Part shown: positions 1 to 3,000 of the stretch, piece after piece
Layout: each line of letters opens with the position of its first letter
How positions within the stretch are numbered: position 1 is the first letter of the stretch
Origin: a virus
Taxonomy: Duplodnaviria; Heunggongvirae; Uroviricota; Caudoviricetes
Virus record (IMG/VR): IMGVR_UViG_2778261686_000011
Direction: 5' to 3' (one strand)
Length of the DNA stretch: 18,877 nucleotides
Position numbers: made by a program

Positions 1-3000
1 ATGCTAAATGTAAGGTTTGATTCAGAAAAGGCTTTAGAGGCCATTCTGTACGTCGCCTCTAAAGCACCGATCCCAGATATCTATCATGTCGGAAAAATTC
101 TTTATTATGCTGACAGGTTTCACCTTGAAAGTTTTGGACGCCTCATAACGGGCGATCACTATAACGCTATGAAGGATGGGCCTGTAGCAAGCAACACATA
201 CGATATTATAAAAATTGCTCGTGGAGATGGACGTTACATTCCTAATGGTTGTGATGTCGATTCTGTGCGAAAAGCATTTTCTGTATCAGGTATGACGATT
301 GTGCCGAGCCGTGAAGCTGATGAAGACTTTTTTAGTGACTCAGATTTAGAGTGTATTGATAAGTCTATCGCGATGCTTGGAAACATGTCCTTTGAAGCTA
401 TCAGAACCATGAGCCATGACGCGGCATGGGAACAGGCAGATCACAATGGTGAGATGTCTTTGGAATCGATAGTTGCACAGCTAAAAAATAGCAAATTAAT
501 ACTGGATTATCTGAAGAACGGATATTGATACTTATGCTGGGTGATTGTTTCCCTCCTGATTTTAAGGCTAATTTTAGTCGTGAAAGAGGTATATCACCCA
601 GTGATGTATTGTATCTTCATTGTGATTTTACGACCCCACCTAAAGTAAAATATATGGTGGTTGTTTGCTGTGAACCTCTTTTAGTTCTTCTAATAAATTC
701 AGATATAAATGAATTTATTAAGAGAAACAATGATCTTATGGCTTGTCAGGTCGAAATTAATAGAGAGGACCATGATTTTCTTAAATGGGACTCATTTGTT
801 AATTGCATTGAGGCTCATGCTGCTTTCGATCTTGAAATTATTAAAGAGAAAATAGCCATCCAATATGGTGACGTGCTAAAAGGTCGCATTACAGATCATT
901 GTATGAGACAAGTTCGATGTGCAGTTGAGATATCTAAAACTATGGTTAAACGGCATAAAAAACTGATACTCGCTGCTCTTCAACATTATGAATAAACCCA
1001 TCTTTGGATGGGTTTATTCATATTCTATTTAAATGAGCCTTTGTTTATGGGTTCTGACCCTTTCCCACTCAGCACGCCCTTCTTCTCGCCTTTTGTCTAT
1101 GTATTCCGCAAGATCCTGAATATTGATGCAACGTTTTGCTTTTTGTGATGTGCCGATGCGATATGTTGGAACGGGCAACTTACAAGCGTTTGCTTTTGCT
1201 TCTGCCGTGGCTGGACTCATGCCAAAGTACTTTTGGCTAACTGCTGAGAGTTCAATGTTTGGGGTATTGAATTCAGCCATCAGTAAAAACAAGGTGTTCA
1301 TAATTTTCTCCATCAAAACCGGCTGCACCCGGGAAAATCATAATTCTGTGCTGGTGGCAGGAATTAATTTCTGCCAGATAGCGGAAACATATTTTGCCTG
1401 ATGACGGGCATCAGCCAGGGCGTTGTGCCGTTCGCCATCGAAAGGCATGTCCATTTTGGGGTCGAATCCGATGGAACGCCCAAGCGTAACGATCGTGCGT
1501 ACATCGTGGTCATTCCAGTACGCCCACGGGCAGATTTGTCCTGCTCGCTCATAAGCTCCACGTAAAATTACGTTGTCGAAGGTGGCCCCGTTACCCCAGA
1601 CTTTTAAATATTTCGTATTGTCTGCGTGCCGGTTAATGAAATGGTTTAGTTCTGAGAGAGCATCGCTGATCGACAAAGTATCATCAATACAGATTGCAGC
1701 TCGCGCTTCAGGGCTTTGTTTCAACCACCACAGGATGGTATCGCCGTCAGGTGTAGCTCCTTGCTTCATAGCACTGTCCAGGCTGACAACCGCATAGAAT
1801 TCTTGTTCGATGTCTCCGGTTTCTGGAGTGAAGAACACCGCGCCAATGGAAACGATCGGTGCATCCTTATTTTTCCCCATCGTCTCAAGGTCGATCATTA
1901 AGTTGTTCATCACTTCACCTCCTGCGGCGGTTCCGGTAGCGGCATCCAATTGATTACATCGCATTCAGGGATGCTGATATCATCACCAAGCCATCCTTGA
2001 CCTTCAGACCAGCATTGCACGTAATACCCGTATTCTGTGTTCACTACGCACCACTGCCCGTCATCCGGCATTCGCTCACTACAGCTTATCCAACTATCCG
2101 GAGTTACCGGAGAGTTGCCATTTACATCGAAGTTTGGCTCTGCGTCCTGAACCAGGAGGATGTACCCATTCTTGGCAGTATCAAGTTCTAACGCCTCGGT
2201 GACGGTGCCGAAATAGCGATTACCTAAATCAGCATCACAAGTGCTTACATCAATGGAAACTTCCATGCCTTCGATTAATTCTGGCAAGTTGTAAGTTTGG
2301 TTTACAGGTTGGCCTCCCTGAAGCATGGCGGCGCGGTGACACCAGATAATCCAGCCAAGCGCCATATCCCATGCCATGTATTCTCTATCGCCATTTTTCG
2401 CCCTGCGGCGATCTACAGATTCCCCGAAACGCTTCTCCATAAATAATTCATAGGCTGCTCGTTCATCCGATACTGCTGCCAGTGATGCCAGTGCAATTCG
2501 TGCCAGTTCCATTTGTTCGCCACGGGTAAGCCCGTTTTCAAGCGGATTTTTAATGAATAATTCGATACGTTCTTTGGTAATAGAATTCATGCTATTTCAC
2601 CTTAATCTCAACATTTCGCAGTTTTAGCTCTACTGGCAGGTCTGACTTTCCTGTTAATGCTAATGCGAGATTTTCTGGAGTAATGAGAGCAGTTATTGTT
2701 TTCCCCATCGCCAGACGAATAATCAGTCGTATCTCGCTATCGTCACATGCTCCTGGTCGAACAATTGATATTTGTCCGTTCACCTCACTCTCCTTTAGTG
2801 CGCAAGTGGTTTTTCCAGCGGTTTTGCGCCGCGCTGGGCTTTTTGCAACAACTGTGCCCCATCACCCCGCAACACCCCGTCAATCTCACTCGTCTGTTAC
2901 TAATCCTCAACCATCGCCAGACCCCAACACCGTTTCTGCGAGCTAACAGAATTTTTGCCTTACGGTTTTTCATCGCTTTATTCTTCTTCCTCACGCCCAA

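Follow-up and report, generated by a model that had tools for sequence, protein, structure and literature searches.

A Panacea-Domain Gene and a Predicted MazF-Fold Partner Form a Putative Toxin–Antitoxin Cargo Pair in the attL-xis Interval of an Escherichia coli Lambdoid Prophage Integrated at dusA

Layout of the Gene Pair

The window analyzed here is a stretch of 18,877 nucleotides from a virus of the Caudoviricetes (IMG/VR record IMGVR_UViG_2778261686_000011), and its left kilobase holds two neighboring + strand open reading frames (ORFs), at 1-528 and 525/534-995. We call them gene 1 and gene 2, or panA and panT, after the work that defined Panacea, PanA, and PanT and validated nine pairs (Kurata et al. 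2022, PNAS 119:e2102212119; PMC8832971). It is probable, in our view, that they constitute a type II PanAT toxin–antitoxin (TA) operon with a MazF-fold PanT of the ribonuclease (RNase) type, carried as cargo between the left attachment site (attL) and the excisionase gene (xis) of a dusA lambdoid prophage. The features of the locus are the following.

1..528, + strand: panA, predicted standalone Panacea-domain antitoxin of 175 aa (PF13274, phrog_1281, N-termini of homologs)
525..536, + strand: gene junction, with the TGA of panA at 526-528 and the probable panT start ATG at 534-536
534..995, + strand: panT, predicted toxin of 153 aa from putative toxin cluster T5 (Kurata et al.), fold of divergent MazF/PemK/Kid type
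987..1022, both strands: hairpin, probable bidirectional intrinsic terminator with a perfect 16-bp stem and a 4-nt loop
1029..1328, - strand: excisionase-like gene (PrtN family; PF11112, phrog_1300), context outside the module

An earlier note, made from the sequence of the window, had described an AT-rich cassette of two adjacent + strand genes, and both observations hold. The GC content of the cassette is 0.381 (0.413 for gene 1 and 0.346 for gene 2) versus 0.488 in the other 17.9 kb, and it is the lowest in the window: of the 337 segments of 1022 nt taken from the rest of it, none is as low. The same note had the two genes coupled by a 4-nt overlap and gave the second product 156 aa. These two figures correspond to an alternative start, TTG 525-527, which overlaps panA by 4 nt. 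The ATG at 534 leaves a 5-nt gap after the panA TGA and yields 153 aa, and it is favored as the panT start by the RefSeq annotation and by the N-termini of homologs (M..LGD.FP). When the junctions of 10 related loci plus further contexts are compared, the spacing between panA and panT ranges from an 8-nt overlap up to a 31-nt gap. Tight coupling is thus conserved among relatives, the exact overlap length not. No strong Shine-Dalgarno sequence for panT was found at the junction, which is consistent with translational coupling to panA.

The hairpin at 987-1022 overlaps the final codons and the stop of panT. The note had read it as a terminator with a perfect 9-bp stem; the hairpin is there, with the longer stem given above. 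Its folding free energy is -23.0 kcal/mol on the + strand (z -7.7) and -22.1 kcal/mol on the - strand (z -8.6), and such strong scores on both strands make it a plausible bidirectional terminator.

The Panacea Protein

Gene 1 matches PF13274 with E = 3.9e-20 and 73.3 bits (cutoff 25.7) over residues 32-143 of 175, so that the look of a Panacea domain ascribed to it is borne out by the hidden Markov model (HMM) check. It also matches phrog_1281 (E = 1.1e-20). No further domain was found in the protein, including no extra N-terminal one, and a PDB search with the PanA profile returned no solved relative. In Proteus, Serratia phage OS31, and Photorhabdus, the homologs all begin at the residue that corresponds to window position 1 (MLNxRFDxEKA), and the ATG at that position has an AAGGG Shine-Dalgarno sequence 8 nt upstream. 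Taken together, these N-termini and the AAGGG place the panA start at position 1, making the gene complete in the window. The RefSeq version of PanA has 193 aa, with a start 54 nt upstream of the window (6947-7000 of locus L001), and the protein collection contains versions of this same gene with 175, 184, 189, 191, and 193 aa.

Conservation and Mobility of the Pair

A search with the family alignment of gene 2 recovered 15 genome loci, and all 15 have a homologous Panacea ORF directly upstream of the gene 2 homolog, with its end 3-25 nt ahead of that homolog. They comprise seven intact pairs of Photorhabdus and Proteus and distant ones in Serratia, Pseudomonas mandelii, Thiomargarita, an acidobacterial metagenome-assembled genome, and "Ca. 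Zipacnadia." The pairing is also found in Acinetobacter terrae, in two metagenomic lineages, and in Serratia phage OS31, the last of which duplicates the context of a Serratia ureilytica prophage and is not independent. Over the 18 related contexts inspected, 17 of them distinct and ranging from Acidobacteria to Acinetobacter, the gene directly upstream is in every case a Panacea gene. All the upstream ORFs tested (10/10) belong to PF13274. The two proteins diverge in parallel from those of the window, PanA from 63 to 37% identity and PanT from 57 to 34%. This conserved pairing is the strongest evidence for the PanAT reading. The proposal of the earlier note, a Panacea antitoxin with an adjacent toxin as cargo at a prophage edge, finds support both in the Pfam match and in a two-gene layout present in every relative examined. 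That PanA and its MazF-fold partner make up a TA-type module we regard as very likely.

The contexts of the pair are varied. In Serratia phage OS31 and the S. ureilytica prophage, it lies between the Q antiterminator and the lysis genes. In a metagenomic integrative element (loci L026-L028, protein P0034), it has a tyrosine integrase and a ParE–helix-turn-helix pair on one side and an AlpA-type regulator on the other, a placement between integrase and AlpA that echoes the attL-xis position in E. coli. In Photorhabdus, the pairs are in chromosomal islands near HigBA-like and canonical PemK/MazE pairs. Given this variety, the two genes together behave as an autonomous mobile unit. The Photorhabdus islands carry, 1-1.5 kb downstream, either a canonical PemK/Kid-type MazF accompanied by an AbrB-type antitoxin or else a HigB/HigA-like pair (L009 4275-4900, L014 4304-4929, L018 4073-4698, and around 4335-4913 in L004, L007, and L008).

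Family and Fold of PanT

The homologs of gene 2 form 37 clusters at 90% identity, all of 148-157 aa, in Enterobacterales and Idiomarina. An exhaustive profile search extends the family to 1,233 representative clusters at E <= 1e-3, nearly all of 130-165 aa. Gene 2 and 30 homologs were compared with Pfam, NCBIfam, PADLOC, and PHROGs, and nothing meaningful was found. Searches of PDB sequences with the single sequence and with the profile returned no MazF and a chance match to AUGMIN only (E = 0.39). A distant member of the family, P0247 (131 aa), is called "uncharacterized protein YifN (PemK superfamily)" by JGI. No other source annotation in the family indicates the MazF/PemK superfamily.

The AlphaFold2 model of gene 2, built with 30 homologs, is confident, with a predicted local distance difference test (pLDDT) score of 88.9 and a predicted template modeling (pTM) score of 0.84. 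The top Foldseek matches of this model are MazF-mt3 and MazF-mt1 of Mycobacterium tuberculosis, with probability 1.00 and target-normalized TM-scores of 0.64-0.68. According to the model, gene 2 encodes a protein of the MazF/PemK fold, strongly diverged, with an SH3-like barrel. Relative to the canonical MazF (~110 aa), the model has an N-terminal helix (~2-17) and a C-terminal helix (~139-148) in addition. The check proposed in the note for this gene was therefore negative for HMMs of Pfam and of the defense libraries and positive for structure prediction. Its description of the partner as unrecognized and as the most likely novel effector of the window did not survive, the protein having a predicted MazF/PemK fold and belonging to a family already cataloged as PanT cluster T5 (see following).

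The family has the signature FTxPPKxK ... INS ... DHxFLxxDS. K39 and S87 do not vary among 52 diverse members, and G23, F32, K37, N55, S56, L68, F82, L83, and C91 are nearly invariant. The family was aligned by hhalign in two ways, against S. aureus MazF by itself and against an alignment of 7 MazF/Kid/ChpBK sequences (the PDB-checked S. aureus MazF, four further sequences, and two from Photorhabdus). By the order of secondary-structure elements and by the low-confidence hhalign register, there is no Arg at the position of the dyad: K37/K39 stand opposite the catalytic Arg of MazF, and N55-S56 opposite its catalytic Thr. The serine S87 matches the DS motif of the Bacillus and Staphylococcus MazF. 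The active site may then be a Lys/Ser variant of the Arg/Thr dyad of MazF, made of K39 (with K37), N55-S56, and S87. The active MazF4 and MazF7 of M. tuberculosis have Lys and Ser in place of the catalytic Arg and Thr (PMC7354611).

Place in the Published Catalog

The homolog of Photorhabdus namnaonensis corresponds, by exact look-up, to WP_065390163.1. Dataset S1 of Kurata et al. lists this accession with the upstream PanA WP_065390172.1 as pT5/T5 (PMC8832971), and it also has the P. khanii and P. thracensis homologs (WP_036849733.1 and WP_046973966.1) in T5. The Photorhabdus homologs listed as T5 are 53-57% identical to their counterpart in the window. Judged by these sequence matches, the pair of the window is an E. 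coli-native, prophage-borne member of PanAT, and its MazF-like toxin type was cataloged in 2022. The E. coli/Salmonella prophage member itself was not found in the portion of Dataset S1 considered. Two other clusters were considered and rejected. The validated cluster T6, which also contains Photorhabdus and Proteus, had been suspected first; the accession of the homolog differs and is listed in T5. Cluster T1, which contains the nontoxic pairs of E. coli MOD1 and Salmonella phage Emek, was discarded because tblastn gave no match in Emek.

For T5, Dataset S1 gives HHpred probabilities of 99.53% to EndoA, 99.1-99.5% to MazFs, and 98.3-98.6% to CcdB (PMC8832971), figures that concern another T5 member than gene 2 and were not reproduced here. 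In a first alternative, gene 2 would use its MazF/CcdB barrel not as an RNase but to poison DNA gyrase in the manner of CcdB, or to act on some other protein target, with PanA still as its antitoxin. We regard this alternative as improbable.

MazF-like PanTs from other clusters have been studied: those of P. moraviensis (T6) and B. ruminantium (T25) are neutralized by PanA and inhibit translation, their MazF-like nature being known by HHpred only (PMC8832971). The NetFlax study reports that standalone Panacea antitoxins neutralize by direct contact in the cases tested, and it counts MazF/PemK among the commonest toxin folds of the network (PMC10440598). None of the accessions sought was present in its supplements. 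Our literature search found no phage-defense test of a PanA:MazF-like pair.

The Prophage and the Cargo Slot

Many E. coli strains have chromosomal DNA that matches the first 1.4 kb of the window at 99.6-99.9% identity. In strain E189 (NZ_AP024521.1, with the operon and its upstream region at 4557690-4558912), a displaced piece of the dusA 5' end stops 195 nt before window position 1, and a tyrosine integrase and an intact dusA are found ~42 kb rightward, past a complete lambdoid genome. Hence the cassette is the outermost cargo between attL and xis. The host element is a dusA-integrating lambdoid prophage of E. coli, and the prophage-edge position proposed from the window alone is confirmed by this locus, as is the convergent excisionase-like neighbor by its matches to PF11112 (PrtN, E = 3.9e-23) and to phrog_1300 ("excisionase," E = 6.9e-40). 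That gene is named "pyocin activator PrtN family" in Pfam and RefSeq and "excisionase" in PHROGs; its maximal ORF starts from a GTG at 1328, and the RefSeq annotation spans 1029-1301. An Rv2179c-like 3'-5' exonuclease gene lies beside it, on the strand opposite to the cassette. The conserved prophage backbone starts directly to the right of the cassette, at the excisionase-like gene.

Among 5,426 complete genomes of E. coli, 46 carry the cassette. No homolog was found in the plasmids searched. The slot is identical in the three E. coli loci inspected (E189, AST240, and isolate 624). The xis/exo backbone without the cassette is found in approximately 700 further complete genomes of E. coli and also in phages, mEp460 being one. 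In the int-xis slot of mEp460 there are instead two unrelated ORFs (3019-3552 and 3749-3922; phrog_4350 and phrog_2741), both of unknown function. This backbone without panAT in so many genomes, together with the other ORFs in mEp460, indicates that the cargo of this slot varies. The window has another AT-rich cargo ORF at 15495-15920 on the + strand (141 aa, GC 0.39). It matches phrog_4748, of unknown function, and a Pfam search of it gave no match. It lies between the Q antiterminator (14463-15215) and a DNA methylase (16498-17496), which is the Q-to-lysis slot where Serratia phage OS31 has panAT.

Proposed Mechanism

In the mechanism that we propose, panA and panT would be cotranscribed, probably from a promoter of their own in the ~190 nt between attL and the start of the window, and translated in a coupled fashion. 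The shared hairpin would end transcription and block read-through from the convergent xis/early-left operon. With its own promoter and a bidirectional hairpin, the operon would not depend on phage early transcription for its expression in the lysogen. PanA would bind PanT directly and keep it inactive. Once freed from PanA, PanT would most likely act as an endoribonuclease, cutting RNA and halting translation. In the lysogen, the module might exclude or abort infecting phages, or it might stabilize the prophage as an addiction module, both roles being known for MazF-type and other TA modules. The comparisons made here show the Panacea domain, the predicted MazF fold, the strict pairing of the two genes, membership in T5, and the location as cargo. 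We infer toxicity, RNase chemistry, direct neutralization, and a role in the lysogen for panAT; an RNase mechanism for PanT seems reasonably likely, and an anti-phage role is proposed tentatively.

Loss of PanT and Alternative Readings

Natural variants bear on the role of each gene. In three Photorhabdus species, the homolog of gene 2 is frameshifted, truncated, or cut to its first 40 codons and PanA is full length. The decayed panT loci are the following.

P. australis, locus L014: 2992-3461
P. tasmaniensis, locus L016: 821-1301
P. luminescens, locus L018: 3001-3117

In E. coli AST240 (locus L020, 2025-2535), an additional A in an A-run near position 848 shifts the frame of gene 2, which then ends after about residue 105 and loses its C-terminal third, with PanA intact; the Prokaryotic Genome Annotation Pipeline (PGAP) annotates no gene there. 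A match longer by the same 1 nt is seen in four others among the 46 genomes of E. coli (AST20 and O166:H15 strains), which makes five genomes in all by match length, the frameshift being sequence-checked in AST240 alone. The loss of gene 2 with retention of PanA is the pattern expected if gene 2 encodes the toxin.

This pattern is the opposite of that predicted if the polarity of the pair were reversed, i.e., if the Panacea protein were harmful and restrained by the MazF-fold protein. The sole T5 pair tested is that of Chryseobacterium bovis, whose PanT is toxic in E. coli and whose PanA, being also toxic on overexpression, left the pair unvalidated (PMC8832971). Its homology to gene 2 is taken from the clustering of Kurata et al. 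The toxicity of this PanA, and of those of two other pairs, when overexpressed in E. coli would fit a reversed polarity. However, PanA is the antitoxin in all validated PanAT pairs, and an upstream antitoxin is the classical type II gene order. A reversal is therefore highly improbable.

One may also ask whether the pair arrests growth in E. coli at all. Gene 2 might encode a nontoxic MazF-fold binder of nucleic acid or protein with a phage function exerted together with the Panacea protein, for example, regulation near att/xis or counter-defense. Eight of 25 putative PanTs of Kurata et al. were nontoxic, including those of two phage-borne pairs, E. coli MOD1 and Salmonella phage Emek (PMC8832971), and no T5 pair has come through a neutralization test. 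On the other side are the toxicity of the tested T5 representative and the independent losses of gene 2, with PanA kept, in Photorhabdus and in one E. coli lineage. The pair is, moreover, found outside phages, in TA islands of the chromosome that also contain HigBA-like and MazEF/PemIK pairs, and the different cargo slots that it occupies in different phages indicate that it is not bound to one phage function. We consider a nontoxic pair unlikely.

Besides the nontoxic PanTs and the unvalidated C. bovis pair, some of our own results weigh against a PanAT operon with a MazF-fold, RNase-type toxin. None of the 30 members of the gene 2 family matches PF02452 even at E <= 10, and hhalign of the family with MazF gives a probability of ~1%; the register is consistent, and sequence homology is not claimed. 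The active-site residues were assigned from sequence patterns, with an uncertainty of one residue or more (N55 versus S56, K37 versus K39). The defense models of PADLOC-DB v2 have no match to gene 1, and to gene 2 only the nonsignificant PDC-M02B (E = 0.017, 12 bits), a result that also suits a nontoxic pair. The promoter-like site found upstream (TTGACC-18-TAAGAT) is no better than chance, with 1 found versus 1.2 expected.

Relation to Known Systems

The pair of the window shares with PanAT the PF13274 antitoxin, the conserved bicistronic layout, and a published PanT cluster. Within PanAT, it resembles in build the T6 and T25 pairs, which also associate, in the same gene order, a Panacea antitoxin with a MazF/PemK-fold toxin that has weak or no CDD matches. 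For those pairs toxicity, rescue, complex formation, and translation inhibition have been demonstrated. They are sequence clusters distinct from T5, and P. namnaonensis has both a T5 and a T6 pair under different accessions. Because the clusters are separate, the results for T6 and T25 transfer to T5 by analogy only.

With canonical MazF/PemK/Kid (PF02452), gene 2 shares the predicted SH3-like barrel and the order of secondary-structure elements. Four elements come in the order seen in the MazF of S. aureus and B. subtilis: strand 2 begins with a basic residue, strand 3 ends with a hydroxyl residue, and then come the DS motif and a C-terminal helix. Unlike canonical MazF, it has no significant sequence or profile match to PF02452, and a Lys replaces the catalytic Arg. 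The β1–β2 loop is short and proline rich in gene 2 (FTTPPK), whereas it is long and flexible in MazF. The protein is also ~40 residues longer than MazF, by the N-terminal helix and an extra C-terminal one. The antitoxins differ as well, since MazEF, PemIK, and Kid-Kis use a MazE type of the AbrB/ribbon-helix-helix class with an acidic tail in place of Panacea.

SocAB, the type VI TA system of Caulobacter, has a Panacea domain in its antitoxin, SocA being the founding Panacea protein. Gene 1 scores 17.8 bits against the SocA equivalog NF047745, well below the cutoff of 190. SocA is a ClpXP adaptor for SocB, which does not have a MazF fold, and nothing in the pair of the window suggests that mechanism.

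Implications

Annotation has not caught up with this family, in which over 1,200 sequence clusters with the predicted T5 MazF fold bear the label "hypothetical protein" and no Pfam model covers them. The interest that remains in T5 lies in its size, in its lack of a domain model and of a validated neutralizable pair, and in its predicted Lys-type site and extra helices. What defeated the earlier T5 test was the toxicity of the heterologous PanA. A pair native to E. coli offers a natural system in which to show T5 neutralization, the RNA target, and any phage-defense phenotype. A bolder reading, which we hold as doubtful, is that the T5 PanT would be a mechanistically distinct branch of the MazF superfamily, with a Lys active site placed in a rigid FTxPPKxK loop, two extra helices, and another RNA target than canonical MazF (e.g., tRNA or rRNA). 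PanA would then serve as a sensor of infection by another phage and would release the toxin in response. If this were so, the attL-xis slot of dusA prophages would be a defense hotspot, and the pair would become the first validated one of cluster T5.

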